DNA of 58,224 nucleotides, the filler included, from Sluysia triapertura (Eukaryota): the NCBI GenBank assembly GCA_046118255.1. It is 4 parts of 4 records of this genome, joined end to end, with 100 filler letters (N's around TTAATTAATTAA, not from the genome) between each part and the next. Parts side by side here need not be neighbours in the genome. Positions count along the whole stretch, not along the records: positions 29,601 to 42,899 come from JBJNIA010047679.1; 3 more parts are not named here. One strand, given 5' to 3'. Positions 28,394 through 54,799 of this stretch are shown here, in pieces. Made by a program: the position numbers and the translations under genes. Numbering within the stretch: the stretch's first letter is position 1; every line of letters begins with the position of its first letter. Below the pieces are notes generated by a model, which was given only the letters and a program-made list of their open reading frames with translations, made no database searches and was not told where the DNA came from.

Positions 28394-29027
28394 AATTAAT
28401 ATCTTATTCTTATTATCATTATCTCAATAATTTTAATAATTATAATTTAAAAATGATTTTTATTATTAGCATTATAATTAGAATTAAAAATATGTTATAT
28501 TTGAGAAAGATGAAGAGGTATCTATCGATCACTTAAAATTATTGGAGAACGGCCTTGAGTTACTGCAAAATGAGATAATAAATGTGAAAGTAAGCTTTGT
28601 CTATATTCTAAGTTCAATGATTTTTCATGATCTTTCTACTCTTAAACTCATTCTCCCTTGTTGTTATTATAATGTATTAGTCACTGTTTCATTTTAATTT
28701 TAGTTTTAAATTGAATATTTTAATTAGCGAAATTTCATTTTTCTAAATACATTATATTAATATTTGTGATGAATAAATACTTTTTTAAATTTCAACTACA
28801 AATAAATGTTCTTTGAAATATTCAACAACAAATTTACAATTTCCTCATATCCAATATCACAGCTAATAATGATAATGAAATTTCATATCAATTTTTTAAC
28901 ACAAGTATAACTTATAATATACATTTTAATATGGATATTAAATGCTAAGAAATGTCAGAATACGGCCTAAAGTTCAATAGAATAATTATAGTGTAATTGA
29001 CTTTAATAAAACCAAAATTGTCTGACA

Positions 29028-29080
29028 AGACTAATAGCGCAGCGAGAGAATCCAGGTTCTATTCCCGGTCAGTCCATTTT
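29028..29080 (+). pseudogene. Internally deleted tRNA-like sequence (tRNA pseudogene or SINE head)
   Basis: Acceptor-like GACTAA...TCAGTC, A-box-like TAGCGCAGCG, T-arm CCAGG-TTCTATT-CCCGG, ends CCA then TTTT; anticodon arm absent. Confidence 0.5.
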
Positions 29081-29500
29081 ATGAAGTCTAGCAGAATAAT
29101 ATTTATTGCGTCATTGACAAAAGCTCTTTCAGCTGTTCTGCGGCAAAAAACAAAATGAAAGGTAAAAAGAAGCTTTAAAGTATGAAACTACTCTTTGAAC
29201 ACTTTAAAACTATACCAAATTCATCTGTTTACAGAAACATGAATTGCATAGAATAGAATACGTAAAGAAAGGTGAAGAACAAAAGTAATGTTCCTTCATT
29301 GATTTCTTAGGGCCAATATATATGAATATTTTACTTATCTAATGGTTAATGGATCATTCCAATGAATCAATAATCCATCAGGATTGGAATCGAATCAAAC
29401 AAATCACAAATCAAGATTAGATATTTTTATATTAATTTCATTAATTTTTCAAGAAAGAGATGATAAAGTATTAATTTCAATGATTATAAGTTGTTATAAA

Positions 29501-29600
29501 NNNNNNNNNNNNNNNNNNNNNNNNNNNNNNNNNNNNNNNNNNNNTTAATTAATTAANNNNNNNNNNNNNNNNNNNNNNNNNNNNNNNNNNNNNNNNNNNN
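29501..29600. other. Artificial contig linker (44N-TTAATTAATTAA-44N)
   Basis: Identical to 13496-13595. Confidence 0.97.
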
Positions 29601-29692
29601 TTGCACATTTAATTAAATAATTTTTAAACTGTGCCGCCAAATTTTGAAATCTTTAAAATAGTGCCGCAACAAAAAAATGCTGATAATCACTG
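29601..29692. mobile_element. hAT (Charlie-like) non-autonomous element end
   Basis: gtgccgc subterminal repeats and ...gctgataatcactg terminus followed by CTCTAGAT, matching the NTCTAGAN target preference; other end lost in the gap. Confidence 0.6.
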
Positions 29693-30226
29693 CTCTAGAT
29701 GTTTAAAGTATTTAAAGTATTTAAAGTTTATGTAATTTAGCTTAAAGATTTACATACAAAATTTTGTGCAAAATTTTGGACCATCACATATAGGTTGTAT
29801 CAAAAAGAACTTATGCATTTTGCAACCGTATGAGCTATGTATATTATGCTCATTAAAGTATTTTTATAAATACTTCTTCAAAGTTACATTATGAAAAATT
29901 ATAATTAATTTATAAAATTGACCAAATCAAATTTTATACTGATCTTATGGTATTTTAGTTTGAAAGTATTTAAAATATATATTTTTTGTATTTCAACATT
30001 TTTGTTATAAATTATTAAAATGACTTAAAAGAGTGTACTTAGTATTGAATATATTTTAGTTTGACCTTCATCATACCTATTACCATGTCAACATAAATTA
30101 ATATTTAATTTTTCATAAATGTAACATGTTTTACACTTTAATAAAATGTGGTATTCACTCTTCGCATTAGCATTTCATTTGAACTTAATAAATATTAAAA
30201 TCTGATTATACTCTACAGAATACTAT

Positions 30227-33200
30227 ATGGCTCGTATTACTCAATATAGAAGACAAGTTTCCGAAGTAGTTAATTGGAATCAATTAAAAGCTAATAATGA
30301 AACGTTTTTCCTTCTACGAGAAATTGGTCCAACAGGATTTATTGTCCAAGAAGAAGGTGATACCAAAAAATTTAAGGTATGGTTTTTGGTATGAAATTAT
30401 GAAATTACATGAAGGTCTGTTTAGGAGATCCACATTCTTGCTCTTGCAACGATTTTAAAAAGGAGAAAGATTTATGTAAACACATATGTTGGATTTTATT
30501 AAAACGCTTTCGGCTTGATAAAGATGATCCATTGAGTTGGCAGTTAGGGTTAGTTGAACGAGAAATCAATTTTTGGTTTAATGAATAATTCAAATTCAAA
30601 GCAAAATAAAAAAAAGTAAAGAGACAAATGCTACAAATGAAGAACCAAATACATTATTAATTCATCAGAGGCGCATAGAACCTGATGATGTATGTCCAAT
30701 TTGCCAAGAAGATTTATTAGATTCTCGTCGACCAGTAACATATTGTCGAAATGGTTGTGGAAATAATATTCATATTCGATGTATGTCGATTTGGACTGAG
30801 CATAAGAAAAAAGAAATAGGATTAAGTGAGATAATTTTAATTTTTAAGTTAATACTACGTTATATAAAATAAAAGAATTTAGTTTAGCTTATATTTAAAA
30901 TATATAAATTTTAATTAATGTGTAGCTTACAGGAAAAGAAATAATAAAATTGGTCTACCAAACATTTAAATGAGTATTTTATATATTTTTAAGTATAAGT
31001 AATCTTCTAGAGAAATCTTTTTCAGAATTATAACAAATACATCCATTTAAACATTGTTAAGTTAAGTTGCATGTTTAGTTTGGATTAGTGCATAAATAAC
31101 TTAACAATATACTAACAGTTCGTTATATTGTGACGCATTACTTATCATTTTGAAGACTAATTGAATTGTAATTTTTTAGCAGCCAGTCATTTAATTACTA
31201 AATATTACTTTAAAATAAGATAAAAACGAATGATTTATAGCACAAAACTGTTGCAGTTATCGAAAAATTGCAAAACAGTTCAGACTTTAAAAAATTGTAA
31301 TAGATGAAAATAAGAATATAAAAAGAACAACTTTTAGGTTGACATCGTAACCCTTCAAGAAAATTATAATAAAGATATATATTAATAATAATAATTTTAA
31401 ATAATCAATGTCTAAGTAACAATATATTACTTAATAAAATAAGTAAGTAATATTAAATTAAATTTTTTAAATAATTTCATAATTTATTTGTTAAAATACT
31501 GATTTTACAAATTTAGCAATTTTATTTCAGTGTTTATTATGAAGCATTTTTTTTAATGCAAATAAATTTTTATTTTTATAAAATTTAAATTTTATAAGGT
31601 TGTATATTCCTTTGCGGAATAAATAACAACATCACTAAAAACATCGTTTTTTTGCCCTATTTAATGAGGGATAAAATCTCATTAAAGTAATTTTATATAA
31701 AACGAAAAGAAGTTAAAGTCAAAGACCTTTAATCTTTAACACTTTGTAAATATTGATCGCCTCAGAAAATCTTTGTCAGAATTACTTTATTTTCTGGAAT
31801 TTTTTTGTAGCGAATAAAATTGCTGATTAATTAAGTAGTTTTAAGTTTTATTTTTGGTATTAAAGAACTAAATTAAACAGCTTTAAAATAACCTTCAATA
31901 ATACTTTTAGGTGCATATTTTAATAAATACGACTTTAAATTGACTTGTTCAGTGTGAATAAAATAAACATCTCATCTACAAGTTCCATAGGTTTTATGCT
32001 AAATAATTAAATTCATGGCTACAGATGAACCTACTTTATGTTTTAAGTCGCGGATTGTAGCCGAACCCATTATGATTACTTATTTTGTTTCGGAATTAAG
32101 AAAATAAAATTCATTTTAAGTGGTAAAAGTGGAAAACAGAATGATTAAATATAAAAATTGAAATTGTTTTAACTATATCTCTTTCGTTTGTGAATTCAAA
32201 CGAAAACTGAAATGATTTACAACAGAAATTGGATGATACACAAAGTATTTAAAACGCACAGAGAAACAAAAGATTTTTTCGATTGTTTTGCGGACCTTGC
32301 TTCATTAAAAATCGAGATTATTACTTAAACTCTTAACGCATGCTTATTTTGAAAAAAACAAGCTACATATATCAGTTTCTTTATTTAACCCTTTCAATAC
32401 GACTTTTGGCCAGTGAAGATATTTCAGTATAATTGAACTAAATGTGTTGTAAATAAGGAAAGGAACGTGCTTACATAATTTCAGATTTTTAGAAAATATA
32501 GTTCTTGAAAAAATTCCTTGGGACACATATCCCTGCAGTAGTTTAATTATGGAATAAATACATTCTCTGGGACTTATATATCCCCAGAATTGAAAATTTT
32601 AATTGTAATTTTGGATTTTGATCCACATTGCAGATAAGAGCCATACATCAACTTTTATTATATTTCATTTCTAATTTGTATTCATTTTTGTATACTTTTT
32701 CAACAGAAATAATAATAATAATAATAAAAGTAGTATTTATTTAAAAAAATGATGTCAATAAAATGACCCCGCTTGAATTATCTCGATTGTGGGCAGTTTG
32801 GCCTGTTTAGTGCGCTCGAATTAACTCAAGCGTGCTCGTTAAGAGGTTAATTATATTAAATACATTTGTAAAATGCTGTATAACAAAGAGAATAAGTGTC
32901 AAACTTCTACTTTATTAAATTATTTGTTTCCCAGATTTGTTACCCAAATAGAAAATAATTATAATTGATTATTATAATTTTTCAAGATAATATTTGAATG
33001 CATGTGTGAGTGTCTGTCGAATTTAGGAGTTTTAAGTATAATAAAATTATATGATCAAATTATGTGATAAGATTAGGCTGCAGTAAAAGGTCACATAAAA
33101 TTAATAATAATAAAAGTGAAGAGTTAGAGTAAGCTCAATTTCTAATGAAAGTTAATTGTAAGGGTAAACAATCATTAGAAATTAGATTGTTAGTTTTAAT

Positions 33201-33750
33201 CATAAACTCCGTTATTAATTTTTATTTGATTTAAATATATTGAAATATAGTTTTACAAAGCTCTTAAGGCTTTTTTTGGAATTAAACTATACTTTTAGTT
33301 GAAAAATGAGTTATAATTATACAAAGTATTCATGTTTAAACATGTTTAAGTGTAGAATAAATAACGTAATTTTATTATTTTACTGCGAATCAAAAAATGA
33401 CTTATTCAGAATCCACTGATTACATACCATGTCCAATATGCCGTGGAGATTTTGTTACTGTTCAGTTTTTGATAGAAGAAAGTAAGAATTGTCAAGATAC
33501 ACGTTACTCTAATAAAACTGCTGGTATTGTTATTGTTCGTCACCATGGCTACGCTTGTTGTAATTGTCAACAAGATCCAATTGAAGGCAAAATGTACAAA
33601 TGTATTGTCTGTAAGAACGATTCTAAGGATTATTATTTATGTTCATCGTGTTTCAATGATAATTCTATACATCCGAATCATAAATTTGAATTTCGAGAAT
33701 ATTCGTGTGGGCGATGGAATCCAGCACCAGAAGCACGAGGTTTACATCCT
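30227..33750 (+). CDS. ZSWIM2: ZSWIM2-like E3 ubiquitin ligase (SWIM, RING, ZZ zinc fingers), 3' end not found
   Basis: Exon 30227-30376 (MARITQYRRQ...LLREIGPTGF...KKFK), 38-nt intron, exon from 30415 (VCLGDPHSCSC...LCKHICWILLKRF...WQLGLVEREIN), frame break 30576-30601, RING (DDVCPICQEDL...YCRNGCGNNIHIRCMSIW) to 30825, long intron, phase-matched exon 33410-33750 (CPICRGDF...CCNCQQDPIEGKMYKCIVC...LCSSCF...HPNHKF). Confidence 0.88.
32325..32850. mobile_element. piggyBac-like non-autonomous element in the ZSWIM2 intron
   Basis: TTAA at both ends; left actcttaacgcatgctt vs right (reverse complement) cctcttaacgagcacgctt; subterminal palindromes; a second ttaaccctt end at about 32386. Confidence 0.5.
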
Positions 33751-34040
33751 GTTTGGGATAATAAAAATTTATTCAAAAAATATAAAATTTTGATTTTTAT
33801 TATAATTTATTTACTTACAATAGTGAGTAAGTAAATTATAAATAAAAATTATAATATACCTTAAAAACTTTTTTTGTCTGTATTTACAACTTACTTTGAA
33901 CATTAACCTGAATATATTGGCAAACGTTTTATTTAATAACTGCAGTTCAATGAATCTCGTTTTTGTATTCTGTACGATTATATCCCAGTCAATGATATCC
34001 ATACCTGAAATGATAAAATAATAATAAAATTTAATGTATA

Positions 34041-34865
34041 ATGAATCGATACACGTTCAATGTTTGGATACGCATCACATCAAAATTGCTTCGTACCATC
34101 TTTGTGCGGAATTTGTCAATATTACGATCGTTCTGGTATAGGAGTAATGAGATCCTCATCACGGCATCACTATTTGGTCTGGTTTTGGCAGTATGCCTCG
34201 GTTCTTCTACGAGTTTTTCGCATGCTTTCACGACATTGTGTGGTTTTAGTGAAAAATTAAGATGTTCACATAAAGTACGTAGCGAAATTGAATTTATTGT
34301 CATGAACGCAATGGAAATGCAAGTCACTGCTCCCTATGTTAATGTATTAGCGGCATTTACTAGATGTGGAGAAAAGGATGATTTATTATTTAATATTATG
34401 TATGATCATTCTATTCAAAAAAATGGTTCGTTGATCGATGTTTTAATTAGAGTTATTGTTGGTTCTGATATAGTTGTAAATTTTTTAAAATTGGATAATG
34501 TGTTTTCGTTTATAAATCATTCTATTTCATATATTAATGCTATACTAACAATCGTTATAGTATTAGCATATTTAGTGGAAACGTCTCAAATGTTATTTCG
34601 TGGTACAATAATGGCACGTCATCAATTATCAATTATATTCGTTATTCATCTCATCTGCTTGGTGTTATGTTCCTCTAAAATTGGAAAATGGATACTATGC
34701 GACATTATCTCGCCCATAGATGATGGTTTCTTCGATACGATTATGAAAGACGCAGACAAAACAGAAAATGAACAATTTATGAGTAAAGGTAATAAAGATA
34801 TCTATATTATACCAGATATGTACATTCGTGTTGATTCATTTTTTGATCTTTTTTTAATAAACTAA
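34041..34865 (+). CDS. Orphan ORF, 274 aa, with several hydrophobic segments
   Basis: ATG-initiated long open frame; no domain recognised. Confidence 0.4.
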   Translation: MNRYTFNVWIRITSKLLRTIFVRNLSILRSFWYRSNEILITASLFGLVLAVCLGSSTSFSHAFTTLCGFSEKLRCSHKVRSEIEFIVMNAMEMQVTAPYVNVLAAFTRCGEKDDLLFNIMYDHSIQKNGSLIDVLIRVIVGSDIVVNFLKLDNVFSFINHSISYINAILTIVIVLAYLVETSQMLFRGTIMARHQLSIIFVIHLICLVLCSSKIGKWILCDIISPIDDGFFDTIMKDADKTENEQFMSKGNKDIYIIPDMYIRVDSFFDLFLIN

Positions 34866-35899
34866 TTTTTATAAATGTAGTGAAATACACCAAGTTGGAT
34901 TATTTTGTTTTTTTTATGCGTCTTAAATATTTGTCTTTTATTAATAAATTTGGGCCTTAAGCCCCTTTTAGCTATTAATTATACATTATATAAAATTTGT
35001 TTCCTTTTAATTAATTTTTATTTGAAGAAAGATAATTTTTATAAATTGATAGGAATAAAATTGCCCTCAACACTTTAGTAGATAACGTAAAAATTAGTTA
35101 TTTTAACTAATTTTGTAATTTAAAATTAAAGAATAAATACGTTCCAATGTCTAAGTATTGATAAAGTGTATATCAAATTGATGCTTATAAAGATACTAAT
35201 TTTAAAATGTTACTAAACTTGACGGTTGGCGCACAACATATTAATGAAGAATGCTCCTGTGAGATTTATTATTTCATAAATTTTATTTTTAAATTAAGTT
35301 GAAAAATTATATTATTGGTATAATAACAATGTAACAATATTTTAAGTGTTGATTAGGTGATATTAAGAAGATAAGAGGATTGTTGACCACAAATCCTATA
35401 TTATTAGATAATTAAAATTAGATTGAATTTGAACATTGACGAAATTGCTGCTGAAATTCAATCAGTAAAATTAGTCGGCTAAAGGAGAATAGACAACTTT
35501 AATTTCGATCTTTTTAAATTCTTGATTTTAATTTCCTACAGCACCATAATGCTGCTACATAAGCAGTTACATTTTTGCATAAAATTAGAAACACAAACGA
35601 CATAGATAGAAGTTAGATTTTAGTTACCAAAACTTTCTAGCTGAGGACGCTGCCTTGATACATCTGTAGTTAACGGTGATATCAGGGATTATTCTTTAGT
35701 AATTGAATAACATAAATATTTAGAGTTAGAGGACCTATGATTAGTGATTTATTTTAAATTGAATATATTTTACGAAGATTTAAGTTGTAGCCCCTGGTTG
35801 TGAATTGTTTATAAAGAGTAATTTGCGCTGTTATAGAGAGTTATTTGTAATATTGTTATAAAGAATAATTTGTATTTTGTTATAAAGAGTACTTTGTAT

Positions 35900-36320
35900 T
35901 GTCGTTGTCATAAAGAATAATTTATATCTTTTAATTGCAATTTTGTGATTATCGAGATTTTGCATTTGTTTAGTTATTAGGTTTTTATTAATAATTTGTA
36001 AAGCATGAAAGTATAAAAGACACAACACAACCAAGTATTGATCCTTGAGGAACTCCATGCTTTACATACCTCATTTGACTTCAAACCATTTTATTGCACT
36101 GAATGAGAGACATTCTTTTGAAATCACAAAGTAATATGTCATAATCTATTGCATAAAAAGCAGCAGAAGCAACAGCACCATTAAAACAATTTAAAATATA
36201 ATTTATTCTTAAGATAACTGTATCTGTACATCTGTCAATGCAAAAGGTGTACTTTACAAAATATAGTGGATGTTTTGCAGATCAGTAAAAGATTTAGAAG
36301 GTAATGGCGAGTTTTTTATT
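35900..36320 (-). mobile_element. Degenerate LINE (CR1/L2-like) reverse transcriptase fragment
   Basis: Ordered RT motif relics: CTDTVILR (STETALL-like), SAAFYAIDYDILL (SAAFDTIDHxILL), KHGVPQGSILG, ILYDND (YADD-like). Confidence 0.8.
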
Positions 36321-36960
36321 TAAACAAATTTATCTTAATAATTTGTCACTCAACAATAAATGAATTTAAATTTTACGAGTTCGTCTACGATCCTACACTT
36401 ACAAGAAAAGGCTAGTGCGTAGGATTTTGAAAATATTTAACTTAAAAGTAGTAATGGAGGTCAATTAACTTTTCAATGATATTGTTGACTATAGGTAAGC
36501 TATATTGTTAAACTTTTATTGTTATAACGAAAATGGAGGTTATCGAACAATTTATAATGTTTTACTGGATTCTGATTCCGCTTTTAAGCGAAGTTAAATA
36601 AAATTTTTAACCTAAACTTATATAACGGGTTCACTTTATAGGGAGATAAATTGTAATAATGATTTTACTACCGGTTCTATTTAAACAGAACTTACAGAAA
36701 TATCGGTCTTAAACACCGATGGCGTTGATTGTACTAGTGTTTTTTATGTAATCTAAAATACGGTTTAGATTCAGGTTCACCTAACTGAAGACGATCTCAC
36801 TGGATTTCTTTTTCTAAATACTGAGATTCTACGATTAGAATCGGATAGCTACATAAAATTTAACTTAAATTGATATTTGTGCATTTTCCTAAGATATCAA
36901 TGAATGTTGATCTATTCGGGTTCAAACTTTTGAAAATTTAATTCGCCACTAATATAAGCT

Positions 36961-37185
36961 TTTACTATTTTAATTTAACACTTAATAAACCTTTATTATT
37001 CTAATTTAACACTTAATGACCCGTTTTATTCTAATATCTTGATACAAAATTATTTTAAAACTTCAACAAATATTACTAATTCAACACTCAATAAAGTTTT
37101 TCATTATTCTAATTTGACACTTAATAAACTTTTTATTATTCTAATATATTAAAACAAAGTTATTTCAATACTTCAATAAACAACA
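36961..37185. repeat. Minisatellite with higher-order A-A-B/A-A-B structure
   Basis: A = ttattctaatttaacacttaataaac (about 30 bp); B = ttattctaatat...caaaattatttNaaNacttcaa; block repeated twice. Confidence 0.7.
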
Positions 37186-38337
37186 AATATTAAATACTAA
37201 TATATATTGATTTTAGTTAAGATTTAAAGTTTAACATTGTGGAAATTAGTTGTGAGATTAGGATGTGTGATTAAGATTTTTAATTTGGATTAAATGCCTT
37301 ATCCTTAACGTAAGCACATAGATTCGCAGCTTTTAATTGTGGTGGCCAACCTATTATCTTAATAAATTTTATTAAAAATTTATTTAAGTATATTTCACAT
37401 TCACAAAAAAAATCCATTAAAAACATTTCTTTGAACATAAGTTTTTGCCAACATAGCACTCACCCCCCAAAATCTACAACTCACATTTCTAAATTCACAA
37501 ATAATACAAAAAATAATTAAAATCTTACTCGTTTCAACACTACACAACAACCTTGCAAAATCCCTCACAACCGTTCTTATACCTCAATTCTTTTCACATT
37601 CACCAAAATAAACTCCCATTTTTCAAAACATTTCAAATCTACAATTTACATTCAAAAATTAACATAAAACAATATTAAACTAAATCAACATATTCTACAT
37701 AAAACCATACTCTATAACATTTTAACATTCTCATATTTACCTCCTCTACATTCTCTAAAACAATTCATCCTCTAAAGTCAATTTAAATCTACAACCTTAT
37801 AGCATATAAATCACGGTGACATTCAATACCATCAAATTACATTAAAAATTCATCCAAAATATTTTATGTTTCATCTCTGAAGAATTCAGTTTCAGCCACA
37901 TTCGAAATTAATTATCATACACTTTTAAATCATCTCAAATATTCTAAATGCACGATCTTTTATCATTAAATCCTAACAACCAAACATGACTTTCTTTCAA
38001 AACACCAATGCACATCCATCACTCATTTTAACATTTACACTATTCCAAAGTACTCAAGTCATAACCTTCTACACTCTATTAACATCTTCGGTTAGAAACT
38101 TTATTTCATTCACAACATCAATGTATATTTAAAATCCATGTAAAATAATTATATCATTTTTAAAAACTTAAATCGTAAGTTTCTATATCATAGCAATTAA
38201 CCTCCATACACCATTAAAGATATCTAGTTTTTTGAATAGATTTTAATATGTTCAGAAGGCAAAGACATAAAAGAAATATCATGTATATTTCACAGAACAC
38301 AGAATTTATGCTTTTCGGGATAATAATAATAATAATA

Positions 38338-39789
38338 TGTGGTGGCCAACTCACTACTCTGAATAAAATTCACAAAAAATTCAAACATATTAAAATCTCA
38401 TAAACTTTCAAATATACTTTATTCATTTTAAATCCAAATCAAAACTAACTCATCATATCTAAATCATGCTCTTTAGCAACATATAACAATTCTGTAAAAT
38501 TCATCTCAATCACTTTTATATTTCATTTCGCTTTAGATCCATCAATATAAACTTTCACTTTTCAAAACACTTCAAGTCTACAATCTCATAGCATACAATA
38601 CCATCAATTTACATTAAGTTATTCATCAAAAATATTTTATTCGACATCTCATAACAATCCAACTACAACTACATTCGAAATCAGTTACCAGATATCTTCA
38701 AATCAATTCAGATATTCTAAAGTTATAATCTCTTATCAATTAACTTCTAACATCAAAACATTATTTTATCCAGAACATTAGACTGAAGTAACTAAATTTT
38801 CACTAAACACGTATCAATCTTTTTAAAACACAAATTCACAATTTCGTAAACTTTATCTCTTTTTTGAAGTTTAATATGTCTAGAAATTGAAGAATAAAAG
38901 AGAGATTGTGTATAAGTTCTAAAAGATAAAGAAATTTATGTGTTTTGGTTAATAATAATAATAATAACACTCTTGTTATTATTATTATAACCATTTTTAA
39001 ATTTATCATTTTTATTTTTATTTTTTAAACTATTAAATTGTAAATAAATCAGTAATTACCACCATCCATGTTGACATAGCTAATCACTATGTACAAATGC
39101 ATGTCAACATGCATGGTGGTTTATCTTTCGTTCATTTCATGATGAATGCTACAAATCACATCCATGGCTAGAATTAGCCAATAGAAATGTTAAAAAGTAA
39201 AAGAGAATTTTAGCCAAGAATTTTACAGTATTATACGTATGTCAGCAAACAATTTATCAGTACTATTAAACAACTAATCAAGAAACAACTACAATTTTTC
39301 TATGCACTAAAATAATTTTTCAAAAATTAATTGATCTCAATGTATAATTATAAATGTTAATTTATGAATAATAACCTCACTAATTTATTTTAGCAATAAT
39401 CAATTAGCAGCAAAATTTAGAGTAAAAATTAGAATCTTTTTAAAAAGCATATCAATGATGCTGATCTTATAGTTAAAACTCATAACAACGATGACGAACT
39501 TAAAGTTAAAAGTCATAACAACGATGATGATTATGATAACAAATATAATAACATTAAAGTTAGAGGTTATGACAACCGTGAAGATTACTACAAAGAAGAT
39601 ATGATAACGATGATTATAAATATATTAATCGTAAAGTTGAAAGTTACCATATTAGTGATGTCAATTATGGTTTATCTTAAAAGAAACTTTTATAATTCAA
39701 TTAAATATTATATTAAATAAAATTCATAAAATTTATCAATTAAAATTAAAATTTAATTTAATACTTCATAAATATACAAAATCACAATA
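38338..39789 (+). mobile_element. Nested solo LTR (family A, 1452 bp)
   Basis: Starts TGTGGTGGCCAAC like 37338, ends atcacaata; TAATA on both sides (38333-38337, 39790-39794); the outer copy resumes in register afterwards. Confidence 0.75.
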
Positions 39790-40141
39790 TAATAACATTT
39801 TTGTTATTATTATTATCGTCATTAATTTTTATTATATTTATTGCTAAAATTATTAATTTGGTAACTATCACTACCAGTGGTGACTGCATTAATTTACAAT
39901 GACAGTCAATGTCACCAATGATAGTGGTTCACACATCAATAATCAATCTCTGTTCATTCTTTCATGCATTTATATTGGCCATAGAACCAGAACAAGTATT
40001 ACAGTTGTTTTCATTTTCAATGCCTCTGGTTGGATGACCAATCACAGTATTTCAAAAATTTTCATTATTACAATTTGAAAAGTCTGAGCTAATCGAAAAA
40101 AATAATTTTGAAAAGGATTTATTTATTTAATTACGAAGATA

Positions 40142-40761
40142 GAATTTAACTATTATAAACACGACGATGATTTTGATGAAGATTATGAACTTAACAATAA
40201 CGAAGATGATGATTACAAAGCTAACTATTATAAACATGATGATTACAAAGTTAACAATAACAAAGATGATGATTACGAGGCTAACAATAATAAAGATGAT
40301 GATCGTGAAGCTAACGACAATAAAGACGATGATTACCAAGTTCACAATTATAAAGATGACGATTACGAACTTAACGAATATAAAAATGATGATTATGAAG
40401 CTAACGATAATAATTACGAATTTGATTATTACGAAGATGATTATTACGAAGTTAATGGTAGCAAAGATGATGATTACGAAGCTAACATTATTGCTATCTG
40501 TCCATTCACCACAGATAAATATGGCATATGGAAGTCATTGCTGTTACGCTCACAAAGTCTGTGAAATGAGGTCCACCAAGGAAAACGATTCAAGCTACAC
40601 CTAACATTCTCTTAGAATTACCAATATCTTAAGTAGCATCAAAATTTCAAATCAAAACGCGATAAATAACAATTTGTGTATCCACGAACTCAAAGTAATT
40701 ATTTATTATACTTTTTGGGATGATATTAATTTTTGTGATTTTTATTTAGATGATGAAATAG
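40142..40761 (+). pseudogene. LTR-borne spliced gene remnant: Asp/Tyr-rich 10-aa repeats plus Cys-containing domain
   Basis: DYELNNNEDDDYKANYYKHDDYKVNNNKDDDYEAN...NIIAICPFTTDKYG, frameshift, GSHCCYAHKVCEMRSTKENDSSYT*HSLRI...HELK, intron 40695-40749, MMK*. Confidence 0.7.
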
Positions 40762-41208
40762 TTGGATCAGGAGCTGGCACAACCAGAATTAAAATAATAA
40801 ACGTTCAATGTAATTTTAATAAAATTTTATGTGGTTGTAGTTCATTTATAAATTGTTTTTTATTTCAAAATTCACAATATAACAAAGATTGAAGACATAA
40901 GAACTTAATTAAAATTTCAGTTTCTTTTTTTCAAATCTATTTAAAATTTTTTAAAAATTCAATCATAACTCAAAGTTTAAATAATTATATTAAACCACAA
41001 CAAAAATGTTGTCAGGAGTTCAAAATAACCCTACTACCACAACATTAAGAAAGAAAAGATAAGAACTGGAGGCTTATGTTGATATTTAATTTTGATGTTA
41101 TCTGTTTCTTAGATTTAGATACTTATTAGCTTTCCTCAATTAAGATTTTATTATAATTTGGAAAATAATCAATATTAAAAATTATCCGTATCAATTCAAA
41201 TTTATTTT

Positions 41209-41270
41209 AATTAAAATATTACCAATTAAAATATTACCAATTAAAATATTACAAATTCGAATATTATAAA
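41209..41270. repeat. 15-bp tandem repeat (aattaaaatattacc), about 4 copies
   Basis: Directly visible. Confidence 0.85.
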
Positions 41271-42532
41271 TTATTTATTAAAAAGCAAGTATGTAAAAGT
41301 TAAAACACTTATACAATTAATAAGTAAAAATTGTCAAATAAACTTAGTAAGCGTAAAACATAAATAAAAATTATATGCAAAAATTAAAAGTTCGTTTAAA
41401 ATCTTGAAAAGTATTAATGTAATACATCAAATGTCAAAAAATTAAAAAATCCGTCTATATTATAGGAATAAATATTAAACAATATTAATTTATAATTAAT
41501 ATGTTGTAATTAAATGTTAATAAATAACTTTTATTGCATTAAATATACTTTTAGATTATAAATTCAGTTTAACTATTCTTAAATTAACTATTCTTAACTA
41601 TTCTTAACTATGTTTAAATTAACTATTCTTAAAAAAACATAAAACTAACGATTAATTAATTTTTCCAAAATAATCTTATTTTCTTCAGTTATAAATAAAT
41701 TGTTAATATCAAATTAATTAGTTTTTCCAAATATCAATACTTTTTTCAAATATTAATAATTTTTCTAAATAAATAATTGTCTTTTATCCAGCTATAAATA
41801 AACTGTTAATATCACTAAATCAATAATTTTTTAACTTTGACATTATATATTTGTGTAAGTGTAACGATTCACTATTTATAGTGTTTTTAAATACTATTTT
41901 TAGTAGTTTTATAAGTAAAATAATAAGTTGAATAATTAAAGCAATAATATTTTTTTAAATTAATTGTAAAGGATAATTTTATGTTTTTTATTTTTTGTGT
42001 AAAATTTATTGTATGTTTTATTCTTGAAATTAATATTATTATTATAAAATTAATTATTAAATAAAGTTTTTTATGAATTTAAATAAAATTTTTAATTTTA
42101 AATTTAAATAAAATTACAAATAATAATAATTTAAAAATAATTAATAATTTTAAAGACTAAATTTAAAAATAATTTAAAAAAATAATTAATAATTTAAAGT
42201 ATTGGAAATTATTAATTTGTTTAAATTATTAAAAACTTCTCGAAGATATTTTTTGTTTAAATTAATCGGCAGACATATTAGGAAAAATTACTATAAATAG
42301 GTTAGAATTTTTTAACATTAACCAGAAATTTTAGACGAAATTTTAGACGACAAAAAGAAAAGAAGATTAATAAATTTTTAGACTAATTTTATCGCAGAAG
42401 AAGATCAATAAATTTTAAGAAGAATTTTAGAAGACTAATTTTATCACAGAAGAAATTTAATAAATTTAAGAAGAATTACTATTCAAAAAGTTTTCCATGT
42501 CGTTAAAGTAATTTTTTATTTATTAAGTTTCT

Positions 42533-42899: not shown

Positions 42900-42999
42900 N
42901 NNNNNNNNNNNNNNNNNNNNNNNNNNNNNNNNNNNNNNNNNNNTTAATTAATTAANNNNNNNNNNNNNNNNNNNNNNNNNNNNNNNNNNNNNNNNNNNN
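42900..42999. other. Artificial contig linker (44N-TTAATTAATTAA-44N)
   Basis: Identical to the other two linkers. Confidence 0.97.
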
Positions 43000-43620: not shown

Positions 43621-43697
43621 AACAATTGATGATGGATTTAGTTATTTTGCGTAAAGATGATGTATCTGATCTAATACAATTATGTATTTGAGAAACA

Positions 43698-45164
43698 ATG
43701 AAGAGTGAATTTATGTTGTGTATCAACGGCATGATCAATACAATGTTGCTAAACGATTGTGAAATAGTGATCAAACAATTCGAAGTGTATGAAGACCTCA
43801 CATTCAATGTATTATCTCTAGACAGACATGATATAACGACCAAACATTGTAGTATAATTAAAAAGGACGTTTTTAATACAATAATATTGATGATTAGGAA
43901 ATTTTGCGCGCGCAATGGTCCTATATCTGGTATTATATTATTAAAAATTCAAAAAATAATAATGAAACAACTTAATGAAGATAAAATTAGTCTTTTTAGT
44001 TTAAATTCATCAAATAAATACAAAATTAGTCCTTTTAGCTTATTACTATTAGATGAAAACCAAATCACGACAAGACAACCGGATGTACATAATTATGGAT
44101 TAATGGCGAAACAATTTTTTACGTGTAAAGATTATGTTCTTGTAGTAGTATTATTTAGAAGTTGCAAAGTAATGATTAAGGTCTTCGATGTACATAGTGT
44201 TGGTATAACGGTTAGACGATCTAGGATATATGAAGATGATTTATTCCATACAATATTAGTGTACAATTTCGGCAGAGTAAAAATACTATCTAATGCAAGT
44301 GAAGGAGAAAATATTCTAAAGTTTACCGATAATGTTAAGTGTCTCGATATAACCGTATCGTCCATCGCAGTGGTCCACAGTCATAAAAAATCCGGGATTA
44401 GTCTAAGTAATTTTGTTATATTAAACTTACATTACTATATCTATTATATTGTTTATGTATTTATTAGTCATGATACTTCCATCAATCAAGAAGTCCATGG
44501 AATCGCGATCCGTGGAGAAAAGGTGTCTGCAGAAAAATCTAAAATTTTTAGTTTATTTACAAACAAATTTACAGTTACCAAACTAATCTTCAACATAAAC
44601 ATTTTGTTTAGTTTATTAATAAATAATTATAGGTCTTATTTTCACACAATTAAAGTTATTTGCGAAATAAATAAAAATGTTCATATTCAATCTATAGTTT
44701 ATTATAAATCATTTATTAAAGGAATAAGTAATTTGATAAAGTCCTCAATCGATATCTGTAACTTCATCTTTCGTAGCCATCACACAGTTTCCAACATAAA
44801 GTTACGTTTTAATTTAATATTCTCCTATATGACTATTGTAAAAATCACGAATACTCTGCCTTCTTTCAATTCAATAAATGTACTTATACAAATTATTGCC
44901 GATATACTTAATAATAGATTTAGACAGTTAATATTCTATGGGGTTAAGTCTAAGGCCATCTTTGGCAAATTATCAAACTATATTAAAAACCACTCGACAC
45001 TGTATCCACACTACATATACCCCATAATCTTTTTGACTCCATCTTCTATTTTTAGATTCGATTTTGTTTTTAATAAAATTCTGATTAGATATCTTACTTT
45101 CACTTTCACTTATTGTATATTTTTGCAAGTTTTCTCTGAAATGATTATTTCTTTAATAGTTTAG
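43698..45164 (+). CDS. Orphan ORF, 488 aa (extends in frame to ATG 43632 across one TGA)
   Basis: Longest ORF in the window; opposite strand in the same register is full of stops; no domain recognised. Confidence 0.5.
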   Translation: MKSEFMLCINGMINTMLLNDCEIVIKQFEVYEDLTFNVLSLDRHDITTKHCSIIKKDVFNTIILMIRKFCARNGPISGIILLKIQKIIMKQLNEDKISLFSLNSSNKYKISPFSLLLLDENQITTRQPDVHNYGLMAKQFFTCKDYVLVVVLFRSCKVMIKVFDVHSVGITVRRSRIYEDDLFHTILVYNFGRVKILSNASEGENILKFTDNVKCLDITVSSIAVVHSHKKSGISLSNFVILNLHYYIYYIVYVFISHDTSINQEVHGIAIRGEKVSAEKSKIFSLFTNKFTVTKLIFNINILFSLLINNYRSYFHTIKVICEINKNVHIQSIVYYKSFIKGISNLIKSSIDICNFIFRSHHTVSNIKLRFNLIFSYMTIVKITNTLPSFNSINVLIQIIADILNNRFRQLIFYGVKSKAIFGKLSNYIKNHSTLYPHYIYPIIFLTPSSIFRFDFVFNKILIRYLTFTFTYCIFLQVFSEMIISLIV

Positions 45165-46060: not shown

Positions 46061-46993
46061 AATTACTTGTATATTATACAAAACGAATAAATATGATCGA
46101 TCACCTTAATTAGATAGTGAAAGTTTAAGACTAATTATTTCAACCAAGTTAAGTCGATTTTAATCCTTATATTAAGTAAAGAAAAAGTTTATACATTAAT
46201 ATCTTAAGATTTATTTAATATTTAGATGATTTAGTGTTAGCCGATTTTTAATTAAGTTTACTCGCATTAATAAGTACGAAAAAATTTGAATTAGTTTTTT
46301 TAGCCGAATTTAAATTAGGCATCTAAACTGTTACCAAATTATTTGAATAGTCGAATTTTAATAATTCGAGTAAAATCTTTTTATACTCTGTATTACATTG
46401 TAAAATATTTGTTATTATTAACTCATAAATAACAATAGATCTGAAAAAGATAATTTGTTAATTTGACAATAATTTTTCTCTAAAGAAATAAACTATCAGG
46501 GCACACGTTTTAGTTCTCATTTTAAAAGAGAATTCGAATTAAAGGAAGTAACTTATATAATTTCACATTTATAAAATCAGTCGAAATTTAATTGTTTTTC
46601 TAATACGATGTTAAAATTAATTTTTTCGAAATCATAAACCTCATTAACATAGGAGATATACACAATTAACGAGTTTATAAACTCAACCCAATAAATATTA
46701 ACCAAATAAGTATCAAGCTTAAACTGCTTATAAAGGTTTCAAACTTTTAGCACATCACAGGCTAAGCAAAAGCTTTCTTCTTCTTATTCTTCGAAAATTT
46801 TAAAATAATCTAGTAATTATTACATTAAATAAATACTTTTCAGAAGAAGAAAGATTTAAAATAACTTATACTTACATTGAAGATACTTGTTGCGAATAAT
46901 ATTGGCAACTTTATTTTTCTTACAAATAAATGTAAAAACCACGAAACTGTCGAACAAATATAAAAATGAATGTCGTTAAAAGTAATTAATTAA

Positions 46994-47187
46994 CATGTTC
47001 TCTACCGGTGCTTGAGAAGAATATCTTGTACCACAGCCCATGGAAATTTTTCTTATGAAATGACTTTAAATAGTATTGGATTTTTTAATTACGAAAAAAT
47101 ACTGCAACGCCTTATCGGAAAATGATAAGGTAGATACGCCACACATTTACGATGCCGGGCTCAAAGCAAGAAGTGGTAGCGAACGTG
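46994..47187. mobile_element. piggyBac-like MITE, 194 bp
   Basis: TTAA on both sides (46990-46993, 47188-47191); 13-bp TIRs catgttctctacc / cacgttcgctacc. Confidence 0.75.
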
Positions 47188-48260
47188 TTAAAATATTTTT
47201 TGATATTTTAATATTTTTATGTAAATATTAATTTTATATTTTCATCAATATTGATGCTATTATGTTAAAATGTTTATTGGTTATAATTCTTATTTAAAAT
47301 AAGTGTAATTTTAATAATATTAACCTGAATAGTAAATGTTTCTTCATTTTGAATCAAATATGAAACATATTTATAAAGAAATTTATTTATATTTAAAATT
47401 TAAAATGCGTTCTATTACAATTACCCATTTAAAGCTAAATCTAAATGTTTTATTTTGATTTATACAATTATGTGATTAAATACAGTACTACAATAGTACA
47501 GTTTCGATTAAGTAAAACTTCGTAATTAGTCACTTTTGTTTGTTTTTATGGAATTTTATGGAACTTGTATTCTTTTGATCATTTCAGAATTTTTAAAAGA
47601 TACTTTTTTCATCGCTAGAAGAAATCTATTCTCTGATCTTCAGAAATAATTCCGTAATGTATCAAACTCTAAAAGCTCTTTCAAACGTTGATCAGAAGCT
47701 ACTTATCAATTATGTTCTTTACCGAAGATTTTTAAAGAAAGTCTTTCACCATAAACATAAATTTGCTTTAAAAACCTTTACTAATGGATGATTTGTTAAA
47801 ATTACGCATTTTAATTCTGTGATTTTAAAATGGGTTCATCTATTAATTAATTTATAGAAAATTTTGTAATAATAGAATGATCAAATGAAAATAAATTTGG
47901 AAGAATGTAGTGGTTCACCTAATAATTCAAACTTTAATATTATCAAAGTTATCTATCCACATAAAACAGAAATTAAACACTTAGAAAATTGTTACAATGA
48001 GTAAACAATTAAACAAATACATTAAATGCATTCAGCCCAATACATTAAGTTTTCTATATCATAACATAAATTCTTAACTAAACACTTTTAAAAAAATATT
48101 GAAATACTTCTTACCCTCACTTTTTCAGTTTTCTCAAAACATTTAAATATAGCAGTCGTTTTTATTGCATTATTCTATTATTATATTTTCACATCGCGTA
48201 TGTAGCCAACAGAATAATAATTTAAATTAAATAAATTAATTATCCTTTAAATGATTTCAG

Positions 48261-48534
48261 TCGGCTTTTAATTACTGGAGGAGAATCAGTAAATACAGAA
48301 ATTTTACAGATAGCTGCTGATGTTTTCAATCTAACAATAATTACAATCGCAAATTCCACATCATTTGGAGCAGCTCCCAGAGCTATTTTTGCTACTCAAT
48401 GCGATGATTTCAAATTTTTAACGAATGAAAAAGACAAAATTAACTTAGAAATTACGTCTAGAAATAATAAGGTATATGAAGAAAAAGTACCGCTATTTCA
48501 AAGTTTTATTGACCATATTAGAAAGTCATTGTGA
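48261..48534 (+). CDS. XYLB: Xylulose kinase (FGGY family), terminal exon
   Basis: AG acceptor then RLLITGGESVNTEILQIAADVFNLTIITIANSTSFGAAPRAIF...RKSL*, matching the XYLB C-terminal TGGASxNxxILQxxADVF...ANSxxxGxAxRA. Upstream exons not found; may be a pseudo-exon. Confidence 0.8.
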
Positions 48535-51500
48535 ATATATTAATTTAACTTGTTAAACATAAATTCTAATGTAATGATGCATCATTTATCACATTTGTAT
48601 TTTACTTATTAATTTTTAATATTTCTAAAATTAGTAAAATTATTACAGATATTATTAAGTATAAAATAAAAAATTAATTTCATAAAAATTTTTATTGATC
48701 CTGTAAAAATGGAGTCTTCATTGTTTACGACCAACTATAAAACATCACCTCTTAACGAAAGCAAAACAGCAGATGATTATTGCAGTCTTCATGAACCTGC
48801 TTATGCTAAGCTAACTGAATGTTTCTGTAGGGAACTCGTCATACGGTATCCATCATATTTCATCACACAATATTCACTATAACTCATCTCATAAAGTTCA
48901 TCACAAACCATCACTTAAAAACGATACCTGCATACATAAACTACTAAACGAACTATTAAACTCATTCAAAAGTAAACACGATCATCTCATTTAATAATCA
49001 TGAACTATTATTATTATTACGATTAATATCTTTTCAAAATTCGAATTAAAATTACAACTTTTATAACAACTTTATAATAACAAACTTCGTTTTAATCAAC
49101 ATTGTAATTATACAATTGTTATCATTATTATTAATTGTTTTTTTCTTTTTTACCTTTAGTATTATTATTATTATTTCTCTTCATCCTTTTATCGATTTAT
49201 CTCTACCTGTTCTATTTTTTTTATTCTTGGAATTAATAATTTATTACCTTAGTGATTTCTTTTCATAAATCAGAGAAATTGTTGTGAGACTGTGAGTCAT
49301 ATTGACTTGATGGGTCTGCTTTATTTAAACAAGTTTATATTTTAAAAAGAATAAATTGAAAGATTTAATTTTCGTGTTGAGTAATTATTCATTTACTTAA
49401 TTCAAATCTATTAGTTAAAACACATGCACTCAGGAATTATATTCATGCAAACAAATAAATACTTATCACCTTATTCCTGAAATTATGTTTATCAAACATT
49501 CTTCAAATTTATTAATTACATTACATAATTACGAATTAATTCCATGTTTCATTTACATGAATTGAATTTACTTTTTAATTAATTTCGTCACAATTTTTTA
49601 ATTCACTTCAACATCATATTTGCCACTGTTTCAGCTAATAGATATTTCTGGCTATTTTTTTTCATTACTACTTAATTTGCTAATTGAGATCACGAATTTT
49701 GGATGTAATGTAAATAAAAACTTTTCTCTTTATTTGATTTTTTTTATACTTTTATCATCTAAATTGAATGATTTTATGTTAATTAAATTGTAGCTTCTGC
49801 CATTTCTCTTATATTTGCGTTGCATAGTTTTAGCAAGCTTTCATAGGTAGTTTAATTCAGACTTTTACTAAATGCGTGTCAGTTAATTATTGGAATATCT
49901 TCATCGAATTGTTAAGATAACATATACGCATTTAAACCTGTCTTCCATGAATATAAATTATTTGAAATAACTAAATTCTACATTTCTGGAATTATTACTT
50001 TTGATTTTGATTATTACCTTTTGATTTTCCAAGCAGCATTTTATAAGTTTTGTTTAGTTTTCATGTGATCTTAAAATAAATATCTCAGTTTTTATTAAGA
50101 ATAAATATTTTACCTATGGTATCTGCAAATTTTCAGTTCGATGCTATGTTTTTATTTCCACTTTTGTTAATATTTATATTAGAACTATTTTCTTGCCATT
50201 TTAATACGGGATTATTGTTGGAGAATGCCAATATTTTCACATCTTTGAATATTCGTATGTAATTTTATATTGTGCATACATGTTGCGATTAATGTATGTA
50301 TTCAAATAACAAATTTCATTGGCACTTTGCAGACTAAACATCTATTAAGATAGAACAGACATAATTCACTATTATTACCATGATTATTATAATCATTATC
50401 ATTATTATCATCATCATTATACTCATGATAAAATTTATATTATTGAATGTTTATTCATTGTCTTATCTCATATGTTATATTTATTTACAAATATGGGTAA
50501 CATTTTGAACATTTTAATTTTATTTAATTATAATTTATTTTCTTTTCCATTTTTATCTTTTAATTGAAAATAAAGAGATTTAAAGTTTTCCTTTTTAACT
50601 GCATTTAGCTACTAAATCAATTCATAGTTCCTTTTCAAATATTGCAGAAAATCAACGGATATAAAAGAAATCATACAAATAACAGTTTTAAGTAATTTAA
50701 AAAGAGAGTATATCATAATAGACAGAAATCGACTATCAAAACGCAATAATAAACAAAATAAATAAATATATTATTATTATTAATTTTTTTAAATTAAACA
50801 CTTTGTCATTAATCAATAAATTAATGATTTTATTTTTCTTATATAAATGATAAACAACTAATTTTTATAAAATATATGTAATAAGATTAAAAAGTTTGTT
50901 AATTCAAATATTTCTAAATGTAAAATTGTAGTTGTTTTTTGTGGTGTTATAAAATCATGTGCTGATTATTATTGCTCATAATTAATCATTATTAATGGAT
51001 TTAAAATTTTGTATGCTCTAAAAGTTTTCACATTGAATTGTTAATATACAATTTATATGTGTAAGCCGAAAAAGTTACATAATTGGCTATAATAAAAATA
51101 AATCATTAGATTGAGCTGAAAACTTGGTGGACAGAAAGTCTTTAGCAGTCTTTTACAATGTCCAATATCTGTAGTCATCAGTGGATTTACACTTTCAATT
51201 ACATAAAACGTTTATTTCACAAATTATTTTATGGTTTTATATTCATATTTGTAATATCTTAATCAGATTTGAATATACTTATCTTTACCACAGTGCACAA
51301 TAAACAGGTTAAATTAACCCAAGAATGTCACAAAGCGATTTGTAGCCACTTCCAAACAAATTGTGTTAAGTTTGAAATGATTAAAAGAGACGCTGCAAAT
51401 GCTGTATGAAATAGTTTTTTATTAGCAAGAATATGATAAATGTTGACTAAACACAAGAGTCAAAAAAGTTTTTTTTGGCAGTACTACCGCGTATTAGAAT

Positions 51501-51710
51501 GATAAAAGTTAAAAATTTGATAAATTTATCTATACTATTTTGATAAGATTTGCAATAATATCAAAAAATGTTATCATTCGTACAGTTACAGTTAGAAACG
51601 TATATACATACTTCATAAATCATGTATATAAATCATTATCATATTTATTTATTACACAATTGTAAATTAATTTCAATTAATTTTTCGATTTATTTCTTCA
51701 TCATATTTAT

Positions 51711-51846
51711 NNNNNNNNNNNNNNNNNNNNNNNNNNNNNNNNNNNNNNNNNNNNNNNNNNNNNNNNNNNNNNNNNNNNNNNNNNNNNNNNNNNNNNNNNN
51801 NNNNNNNNNNNNNNNNNNNNNNNNNNNNNNNNNNNNNNNNNNNNNN
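51711..51846. other. Assembly gap (136 N)
   Basis: Directly visible. Confidence 0.99.
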
Positions 51847-54799
51847 AAGTAATATATTAAAAATGTAAAAAATAATAAAGTGCAAGAGCAAGAGCAAGAT
51901 TAAGATTAATGAATAATTTTCATTTTGATAATAAGTTCTAAAGCGACAGAGTAAAAATTTTAATATATAGGTAGATTTTTATTCATATGGTAAAGGGATT
52001 ATTTTTAATGAAACTAATATTAAACATAAACAAATTATAGAAAAGATGAAAAATATAATTAATGAAAAATAATATTGTAATTATAAATATAGTTATTCGT
52101 CTTGGAATTTAGAAATATTATATGTTGTAAATATTTACGTAATTTTCATAAATTGCGTTTTTAGTATTTGTTTTGAAATTATTTTACTTCGTTTATGTTA
52201 ATTTTTTAACAATAAAGCAGTGATTATTAAATATATCGATTCGTAGATCACTTTATTAACATAATTGAAACATTGGACCAAATATTGATTAAATAATAAT
52301 TTATCGATCAAGTTGCATTATCTAAATAAAAATACGTTTTCGTAATAATTTAATAATTGCTTTATATTTCTTTAAATTTAAATAAGTTGAGCAAAATTAT
52401 AGCTTTTGTTTTGTCGCAGATTCCATTATATACAAAGTTGTGTGTTACACTTGCATGTATTTTATTTTTAGTTTGTCCTTATTTATTTCATAGAAATTTT
52501 TTTAGTCAAAAGTTTATTTCCGAAGTGGCACTTGTAACCTTTTGGACACTTATCAATTTTGGAGGAAACATCAGTCTAAGAACGTCAAATTTTTTGCATT
52601 ACTATTTTTCAGTACTATTGCGAATTTCGTCACACGCGTAATTTCTATCGCATTGATCATTTTAAATATACAAAAATAACCAATTTCCCAGTACTTACAT
52701 TGTGAAATAAATAAGTTAATATACTTTTGATTAAATTACTTCGAGAGAGTAGTTTTAAATTTGTACTTAATTTTGTAGTTACATAAAGTCATTGAAATAA
52801 CAATGATTGTGATAACTAATATAATATAACCGAACAAATATAAATATTTAGACCATGTCCGATTGGAAATGTTCGAAGTACATTATATAAAATTATTTTT
52901 ATTTATATGCTTAAAAAGATTATTCATCAACAAATACTTTCAAATGGTTTTTAAAGTTTCTACTGCTCTATTGAACTAGTAATTAGTCACAAAGGAACTT
53001 TTTCTTGAAATGACACTTCGAATTGATATGGATCATACAAAATTTAAATTTAAGAGCCTTGCATAAGTCAATATACTGTTTCAAGTATTTATTTTTTAGT
53101 CTTTGCAATATATTGTGGTCACTAGAATATAACAAACATTTAATTTGAACTTTTTACCGCGAAATCATCGATAAATTTTTTGCTAGACATAAAGTGCTTA
53201 AAAGTAACTTTGTAACGTTACAATGCTCGATATCGGATATTTTAAATATTTATTTAAATGTTTATATTTAAGATTTGATTTTCAATATTTATTTTTTTTA
53301 TTCGAAGATTTGTTACTGAGAAAAAGTTATTTTTATAATATTAAGACTGTAATTGTGTAAATTAATAAAATAAAATATCCATGTAAGTTCATTTTAAAAA
53401 AATAATGCTTATTTAACGAATAATCATTTTATTAAATAATTTCCATTTCCAAATACTTTCTGAAAAGTAATAAAATAATCTTAAAATATTTTCTACAAAA
53501 TAATATTAAAATAATGCTAAGATCATATTAATTTAAAATGACATTACATAATTAATATAAATTCAAAATTTAGTAACAAATAACAATCCACTTTTAACTG
53601 AAATTTTATAAATGATCATTTTAAGCATCATTATAAGAATTAATTACAATAATATGAAATCCAACTTTAAGAGAATAAAATCCGATCAAAATTATCTTAA
53701 AAGCAAGATTTAGAATATTATGATAAGATAAAATCTTACTAAACTGAGATTAAATAGAACTGTATGTAACCAAAGTTTAATAACATTATAAAAGATCAAA
53801 ATTAACTTAAAGTAAAGATTAAACAGAAGTTATACGTAATCAAGATTGTAATCGACAAAAATCAACTTAAACTAAGATTGCATAAAATTAATATAGAAAA
53901 TAAAATTAAGATCATAAAACAAACCAATAAACTGATAGTGATAATTATAATGATAATAATAATAATAAATTTAACTATTTGCGATTATCGATTATTCTAT
54001 TTGTGACTATGGATAATTTATTATTCTATATTTGTTATTAACATAATATTTAGAGTGTTAGCACTTTGTTCATAACTATGACTGTTTATTAAGATAATAG
54101 TATATATTATTTAGAGTTCAATTAACTATTAACTGTTTATTAACATAATAGAGTGTAATTAACCAAAGGAGCAAAATAAGTAATATTATGAGTAGAATTC
54201 TGAGAAATTTTCGAAACTATAATTTTGAAAAAATTTTAAGAAATAAAACTTGGGAACGAGAATTTTTTGAAATTAAAGTTATCAACCGGATATTTCCAGA
54301 AGAATTTTGAAATCGAACTGTTGACACTAAAATTTTATTTATTTGAAATTGTCGATTGGGTAATTACACTTAACCATTGGAAGAAGATTTCAAAAACAAA
54401 TATTCCCTAATTTCATTATTTATTAAATTATTTGTTATTAAATTCTATTTTTGGTGATAAATTAGAGTTAAAAGGGATTGAAATAAGTGGTAAAAGAGGA
54501 AAAATAATAAATTGAAATAACACACAAAGTAAACCTTTTTTACGATAGCCTGAGATCATTGTAATCGAAATAAAAAACGTCAAACCAGTAAAATCAAATC
54601 TTATAAGTTAGATACAGACAAAGTACGATCATACGAATTTAATTAAAAAATATTAGAATATAATCAAAGTATAATTAAACCAAACTTGAAAGAATAATTT
54701 AGTAGATAGGCACTTCTTCCTAAGAACTGGGACGAGTATTCGGATTCGAATTTCCAGATAAGATAAATATAATATATAGAGTATTGTTATCACTTGTAA

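Follow-up and report, generated by a model that had tools for sequence, protein, structure and literature searches.

Broken copies of a small gene with a single Unkempt-type zinc finger, possibly carried by a mobile element, in animal DNA from Sluysia triapertura

We report a small, decayed gene family in a stretch of DNA from Sluysia triapertura, the 58,224 nucleotides of which are referred to here as the window. This is animal DNA of 25% GC in gap-separated segments, and the 100-nt gaps between the segments, each with a six-frame-stop spacer (13496-13595, 29501-29600 and 42900-42999), mean that the segments may not be true neighbours. Two copies of the gene, both on the plus strand, are best resolved. 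Copy B (40142-40761) opens with a region of Asp, Asn, Tyr, Glu and Lys (40142-40489; 32 D, 21 N and 19 Y among 116 residues), built from a 30-nt unit present 8.0 times at 40175-40413, from which the frame runs open into the first half of a single CCCH finger of the Unkempt ZnF3 type (40499-40553). There follow 47 post-finger codons (40554-40694) that align without gaps to copy A, a likely phase-0 GT-AG intron of 55 nt deduced from the sequence (40695-40749) and a likely last exon of three codons and a stop (40750-40761). Copy A (75-580), which is truncated by the start of the window, comprises repeats of Asp, Tyr, Lys and Asn (75-287; a 30-nt unit repeated 5.9 times at 80-255, or a 15-nt unit nine times), a finger of the same type (309-374) and a likely 53-nt phase-0 intron (516-568) which, with the three-codon last exon, occupies 516-580. 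Ahead of the repeats of copy B, and of this copy only, 40034-40142 holds a candidate first exon of four codons and a phase-1 intron of 96 nt that would lead into them in frame.

The original prediction, made on these two copies, described their shared Asp/Tyr repeats and gapless 55-codon block, their matching introns and their pseudogenisation, and in all of this it is borne out: coordinates, repeat units and alignment are correct, and phase-0 GT-AG introns of 53 and 55 nt begin at the same codon boundary in both copies, with a stop three codons after the intron. Two unrelated tails would stop at the same codon with a chance of about 0.04, and splicing of the introns is likely from the conservation of GT-AG. 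Both copies are broken, copy A by stops at 288 and 384 and by the replacement of the first finger Cys with Phe, copy B by a frameshift inside the finger (about 40525-40530) and an in-frame stop at 40602.

The copies lie on different contigs and are about 60% alike overall. In the gapless block (351-515 in A, 40530-40694 in B) 15 of the 55 residues are identical, and identity at codon positions 1, 2 and 3 is 35, 31 and 12 of 55, a contrast between positions 1+2 and position 3 that is highly significant (Fisher p=3e-6) and is retained in the 47 post-finger codons alone (p=7e-5). The comparison of synonymous and non-synonymous change that had been proposed as a check gives pS 0.91 and pN 0.37 over 65 codons. 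This excess of synonymous change, together with the codon-position bias, marks the frame as one formerly under purifying selection, and copy B is best described, at the level of sequence, as a broken small protein-coding gene. Because the repeats can be read without stops in other frames too, the minus strand included, their own coding status is carried by their contiguity with the finger in copy B.

Two further fingers of the same type, which the original prediction had missed, lie at 4450-4515 on the minus strand (copy C) and at 26860-26925 on the plus strand (copy D). Copy C holds a complete CCCH finger with stops downstream and a candidate 59-nt intron 161 nt past the finger, which is in phase 0 only under an assumed frameshift; copy D has a stop at the third Cys position. 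Neither has Asp/Tyr repeats or the 54-nt end zone of copies A and B that is described below. The finger core motif occurs four times in the window against 0.16 expected per shuffle, with a maximum of two among 100 shuffles, and the four copies, every one of them broken, are spread over three gap-separated segments and 58 kb in both orientations. On the same strand as copy C, 680 nt upstream of it, lies a decayed Ski/Sno Dachshund-homology domain (5193-5723, minus strand; Pfam E=6e-11), and a Ski-finger chimera at this locus is possible. Upstream of copy D there are some 200 codons of decayed frame (26269-26893, plus strand) for which no family was found; a Ski-like reading of these frames was rejected, the frameshift-aware score of 31 comparing with 30.4 +/- 2.9 in controls.

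The original prediction, which saw a conserved Cys domain in an apparently undescribed gene family, gave the motifs IAxxPFxTDxxG and GNLCCYTH. The motifs are present as given; they are, however, the two halves of one known finger, as follows from the matches to Pfam, to a solved structure, to protein databases and in a reciprocal search. The finger spacing, C-x9-C-x6-C-x3-H, is full in copy C and broken at one point in each of copies A, B and D. The Unkempt-like CCCH finger family PF25427 is the best Pfam family for all four loci, with E=1.5e-4 for A, 9e-3 for B (second half alone), 4.5e-4 for C and 4.3e-7 for D, all four scores falling under the curated cut-off of 31.1 bits, the best at 30.2. 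Among structures in the PDB, a profile of the four copies finds the ZnF1-3 of mouse Unkempt first (5ELH, residues 97-122, E=1.4e-6), above other CCCH proteins. A HMMER profile search of 1.84 billion protein representatives gave 19 matches, namely 10 Unkempt ZnF3 fragments, five other CCCH proteins and four unrelated repeats; none of the 19 combines repeats with one finger, and no intact member was found there. In the reciprocal direction, the four loci are the top-ranking matches in the window to a profile built from the 10 Unkempt fragments, which detects no Unkempt region there beyond ZnF3. These matches identify the block, by its sequence, as homologous to Unkempt ZnF3, a described domain and not a new one.

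Structure prediction, also proposed as a check, pointed the same way as the profile: the AlphaFold model of copy A is of low confidence (pLDDT 58 overall, 74-84 in the finger, and about 50 in a helix, H42-64, of the post-finger part), and its sole structural match, a weak one, is again 5ELH (E=4.3). A single-sequence search of the PDB with copy A gave no matches. Neither copy A nor the four-copy alignment matched any of the longer proteins in word-indexed searches, which, however, missed Unkempt itself too. The end-zone pattern was not found in metagenome contigs, where none of 592 candidates for copy A was confirmed, nor was any of 78 for copy B in viral contigs. One public sequencing run carries 0.38 of the searched words, and no RNA run is among those listed.

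The accessible text of one preprint gives R119, Y120, N143 and F149 as the ZnF1-3 residues needed for RNA binding (bioRxiv 2024.07.29.605660). With the N-to-F spacing placed on 5ELH, the position of F149 is a Tyr, and so aromatic, in all four copies, and that of N143 is Asn in one copy and Tyr in three; the R119/Y120 lead-in, located by counting back along the Unkempt fragments, is missing from all three copies that are readable there. A Gly precedes the third Cys, as in Unkempt ZnF3. The ZnF1-3 cluster is described, in the portions available to us, as binding weakly to A/U-rich RNA (PMC12136788) and translational repression by Unkempt as acting via motifs outside the fingers (PMC11009413), motifs that were not found here.

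Upstream of copy B the DNA is an older tandem duplication, 38951-39548 against 39780-40293 (score 134, shuffle maximum 66), and each unit begins with its own hairpin. The Asp/Tyr-rich relic that the original prediction placed at 39455-39670 (plus strand) is the repeat part of the upstream duplicate (a 33-nt unit, 2.8 times, at 39440-39531) and has no finger. The hairpin upstream of the relic (39058-39120; z -6.3) is the strongest 72-nt fold among 2393 window tiles, and the homologous hairpin upstream of copy B (39869-39929; z -1.8) ranks tenth of the 2393. Both are of precursor size; three of their 21 pairs are altered on both sides, which 73 of 500 shuffles match, the comparison being of two sequences only. 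Assignment of the hairpin at 39058-39120 to the mir-31 family was rejected (Rfam 22 bits against a gathering threshold of 51, E=0.18; the 3' part is alike and the seed differs). CCAAT motifs precede both copy B and the relic.

The homology between copies A and B continues past the stop to positions 859 and 41044, respectively, where both end in CAACA, and drops to 14 of 54 immediately afterwards. The last 54 nt before this boundary (806-859 and 40991-41044), a non-coding end zone containing an internal direct repeat, are identical at 47 of 54 positions (E=1e-13), compared with 78 of 165 in the coding block. The boundary, about 280 bases past the gene stop, is a candidate element terminus, and TG...CA ends are typical of long terminal repeats (LTRs). 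A candidate for the opposite terminus is offered by two C-rich blocks (37338-38337 and 38338-38860), the second an old tandem copy of the first (386 of 618 aligned columns identical), each of which opens with the same 13-nt, TG-starting motif, 3.7 and 2.7 kb upstream of the end of copy B. This opening matches the CAACA end at 7 of 8 bases (7 of 10), but 21 sites within 29601-40100 match the end at 7 or more of 10, and the chance figure for a pattern of the opening is circular, the pattern having been built from these same two sites. A target duplication is matched at four of five bases for 37338-41044 and is absent for 38338, and a stricter combination of terminus and duplication occurs in 11% of 300 shuffles. 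The opening motif (37340-37350 and 38340-38350) may alternatively be read as a tRNA primer-binding site, with a possible likeness to tRNA-Ile; no tRNA genes are present in the window for comparison.

The original prediction had placed the gene inside an LTR, and what can be upheld of this is a sharp, terminus-like boundary near the end of the gene. No second LTR around an internal region was found in the window, no TGG primer site adjoins any candidate end, and the match in target duplication is no better than chance; on the minus strand ahead of the end of copy A there is a G-rich tract with 13 purines in 20, which is interrupted. Gag, protease, reverse transcriptase and integrase were absent by Pfam from all 151 ORFs of at least 55 aa and from six-frame scans of 861-4462, 19801-21902, 22651-29492, 35001-42052 and 46801-58224, the rest of the window being scanned as ORFs only. 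A protease-like motif noted by eye at 36502-36900 was set aside, having neither Pfam nor PDB support. A solo LTR would carry neither a primer-binding site nor a polypurine tract, and the lack of gag and pol lowers the case for LTR membership without excluding it, since such a lack is expected in a solo LTR or a decayed copy. The same Pfam scans and inspection of the candidate ends likewise revealed no transposase, Rep/helicase, long terminal inverted repeats or Helitron 3' hairpin with CTRR. The common end of copies A and B looks like an element terminus and is at most a candidate LTR end.

A second C-rich, non-coding repeat of 1.1 kb is present elsewhere in the window (934-2041 and 21792-22827, 73% identical), with no coding signal or Pfam match; it does not detectably resemble the C-rich blocks at 37338-38860. 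The openings of its two copies are identical at 24 of 25 bases, among them a CA with TGG directly after it, such as is found where an LTR meets its primer site, and decayed frames follow the second copy (21792-22827). A dispersed, inverted pair of 168-nt repeats, 84% identical, lies at 8335-8499 and 28233-28397, and a long inverted repeat with arms at 55950-56190 and 56730-56990, about 93% complementary, is possibly a MITE. Ordinary host genes are also found, among them those for an LRR protein, an innexin, a weak AMP-binding fragment, a SWIM/RING/ZZ protein and an FGGY kinase (9006-9872, 11928-12374, 20900-21000, 30400-33830 and 48235-48531). In a word-indexed search the innexin exon has 39 relatives, and all 30 of those named by organism are flatworms, the best being Dugesia japonica at 67%, which makes a flatworm host likely; readings of the host as Intoshia or a nematode were set aside on this result. 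Intronless ORFs of 220-490 aa belonging to no Pfam family occupy 6669-7975 (minus), 34035-34862 (plus), 43692-45161 (plus) and 57101-58222 (minus), the last of which contains 108-nt repeats.

Our preferred reading, plausible though a little short of probable, is that the gene is a captured Unkempt finger serving as an accessory gene of a mobile, likely LTR-type, element. Such an element would have taken up the ZnF3 part of a host unkempt gene, losing the other five fingers, and would have used its own promoter to express the captured finger as a small accessory protein. A lone finger that keeps the aromatic RNA-stacking position, standing apart from the rest of ZnF1-3, might be expected to show weak binding to A/U-rich RNA; multivalent contacts could be added by the acidic, Tyr-rich tail, and the protein might then act on the RNA of the element itself or be a competitor of host RNA regulators. 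Should the CAACA end be where an LTR starts on the minus strand, the gene would be antisense to the element, in which case its intron would survive reverse transcription without any special escape. Copies would decay after insertion, as copies of elements do. We count in favour of carriage by an element that all four copies are broken and that the 54-nt end is better kept than the coding block, and against it that no transposable-element protein was found in the scanned regions and that repeats and end zone alike are missing from copies C and D. Of the earlier proposal, that an accessory gene family was spread by an LTR, there survives a formerly selected, multi-copy, broken gene with a likely intron near a terminus-like end; the assignment of that end to the LTR class is conjectural.

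A bolder form of this reading, which we regard as doubtful, is of a flatworm retrotransposon whose LTR, 2.7-3.7 kb in length, would hold an intron-bearing, antisense, one-finger Unkempt gene together with a conserved, precursor-like hairpin, and which would exist in many copies with exchangeable 5' parts, the Asp/Tyr repeats in two copies and possibly a Ski domain in another.

It is also conceivable, if on balance unlikely, that these are members of a lineage-specific host multigene family derived from unkempt and shaped by duplication and loss, in which case the 54-nt end would either mark the breakpoint of a duplication or be a 3' regulatory element that has been conserved. The retained intron, the purifying selection on the frame, the tandemly duplicated upstream unit and the CCAAT motifs ahead of copy B and the relic would all suit host genes, as would the different 5' parts of copies C and D, their lack of an end zone and the absence of a transposable-element protein from the scanned regions; host genes with short introns abound in the window, so that the copies may form a local host cluster. 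Set against this are the breakage of every copy, the dispersal of the copies in both orientations among unrelated genes, and the very sharp boundary at CAACA, with its last 54 nt better conserved than the coding part.

Capture by a DNA element is rather improbable. Here a pack-type or Ginger-like transposon with TGT ends, or a Helitron, would have taken up the ZnF3 exon and the following intron as DNA, with variable 5' cargo, which would account for the kept intron and raise no problem of orientation. The intron lies 47 codons past the finger His, and the conserved linker of eight of the 10 Unkempt fragments stops 39-66 residues past that His, at what protein read-through suggests is an exon end; the Unkempt intron so deduced is, however, apparently in phase 1 and that of copies A and B in phase 0. 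The internal direct repeat of the end zone, the upstream hairpins and the position of copy C 680 nt downstream of the decayed Ski domain, on the same strand, fit such an origin, but the inverted match of the ends, 7 of 8 bases, is shorter than terminal inverted repeats usually are, neither a transposase nor a Rep/helicase was matched, and a hairpin of the Helitron 3' type is absent from the end zone (z +1.5 and -1.4).

That the locus is a non-coding minisatellite beside chance open frames is very improbable, for although the open frame of the repeats is one of several, on both strands, and proves little by itself, the codon-position bias (p=3e-6), the finger homology and the excess of finger motifs over shuffled sequence already refute this for the finger and the 47 post-finger codons, so that it applies at most to the repeats.

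Comparison of the preferred reading, an element-borne accessory gene, with known systems begins with Unkempt itself (UNK/UNKL), with which copies A-D have in common the ZnF3 spacing, the Gly before the third Cys and the aromatic residue at F149. Unkempt has six fingers in two clusters and a C-terminal region, whereas each locus here has ZnF3 only, preceded in A and B by Asp/Tyr repeats, and all are broken; none is thus an UNK ortholog with six CCCH fingers and the C-terminal region. ORFs inside LTRs are exemplified by MMTV sag and lentiviral nef, which belong to vertebrate retroviruses and have no internal intron, and foamy viruses encode miRNA hairpins in the LTR. These resemble the present case in their LTR placement, if the copy B unit is an LTR, and no sequence relation to them is expected. 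Pack-MULE, CACTA and Helitron elements capture host exon fragments with an intron and leave many decayed copies with varying cargo, which mostly evolve neutrally; their capture layout is alike, but the frame described here was under strong past purifying selection and the ends typical of such elements were not found.

The nearest parallels in hosts of the same probable group are the giant Ty3/gypsy LTR elements of planarians known as Burro, which carry captured MATH, BIR, BCL2-like and other domains and accessory ORFs (PMC6431247). Burro likewise took up regulatory host domains, which are encoded within the internal polyprotein or by an ORF upstream, unlike the gene near a terminus seen here, and no gag, env or pol of the Burro type was found in the window; the term CCCH does not occur in the accessible text of the review (PMC6431247). 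LTR elements of rotifers carry captured ORF3s (PMC5408684), and the plant elements Grande, RIRE2 and Retand have antisense ORFs with their own promoter (PMC7264820). According to the available sections of these papers, such additional ORFs of LTR elements are genes either captured or unknown, some of them antisense, as proposed here, but they lie between pol and the 3' LTR, whereas the present gene abuts the terminus and keeps a likely intron; the products that those sections name are GDSL, DEDDy, env-like, coiled-coil and SMC-like, with no CCCH finger among them (PMC5408684, PMC7264820). The portions seen of three further papers (PMC13238120, PMC8532177 and PMC11436793) hold nothing decisive.

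Our searches of openly available papers turned up neither an Unkempt or CCCH finger carried by a flatworm element nor an intron-bearing gene within the LTR of an invertebrate; such a unit may already be described in repeat libraries, Repbase among them, in subscription journals or in the supplements to papers on planarian genomes. Both the domain and capture by elements are known, and it is the layout of repeats plus finger that seems undescribed. Were the gene a member of a host family, that family would be a one-finger Unkempt derivative that has expanded modestly in one lineage. Carried by an element, it would be a case of a retroelement using the finger of a host translational regulator on RNA, and in the bolder LTR form it would amount to a retroelement RNA-regulator cassette drawn from a host developmental RNA-binding protein.
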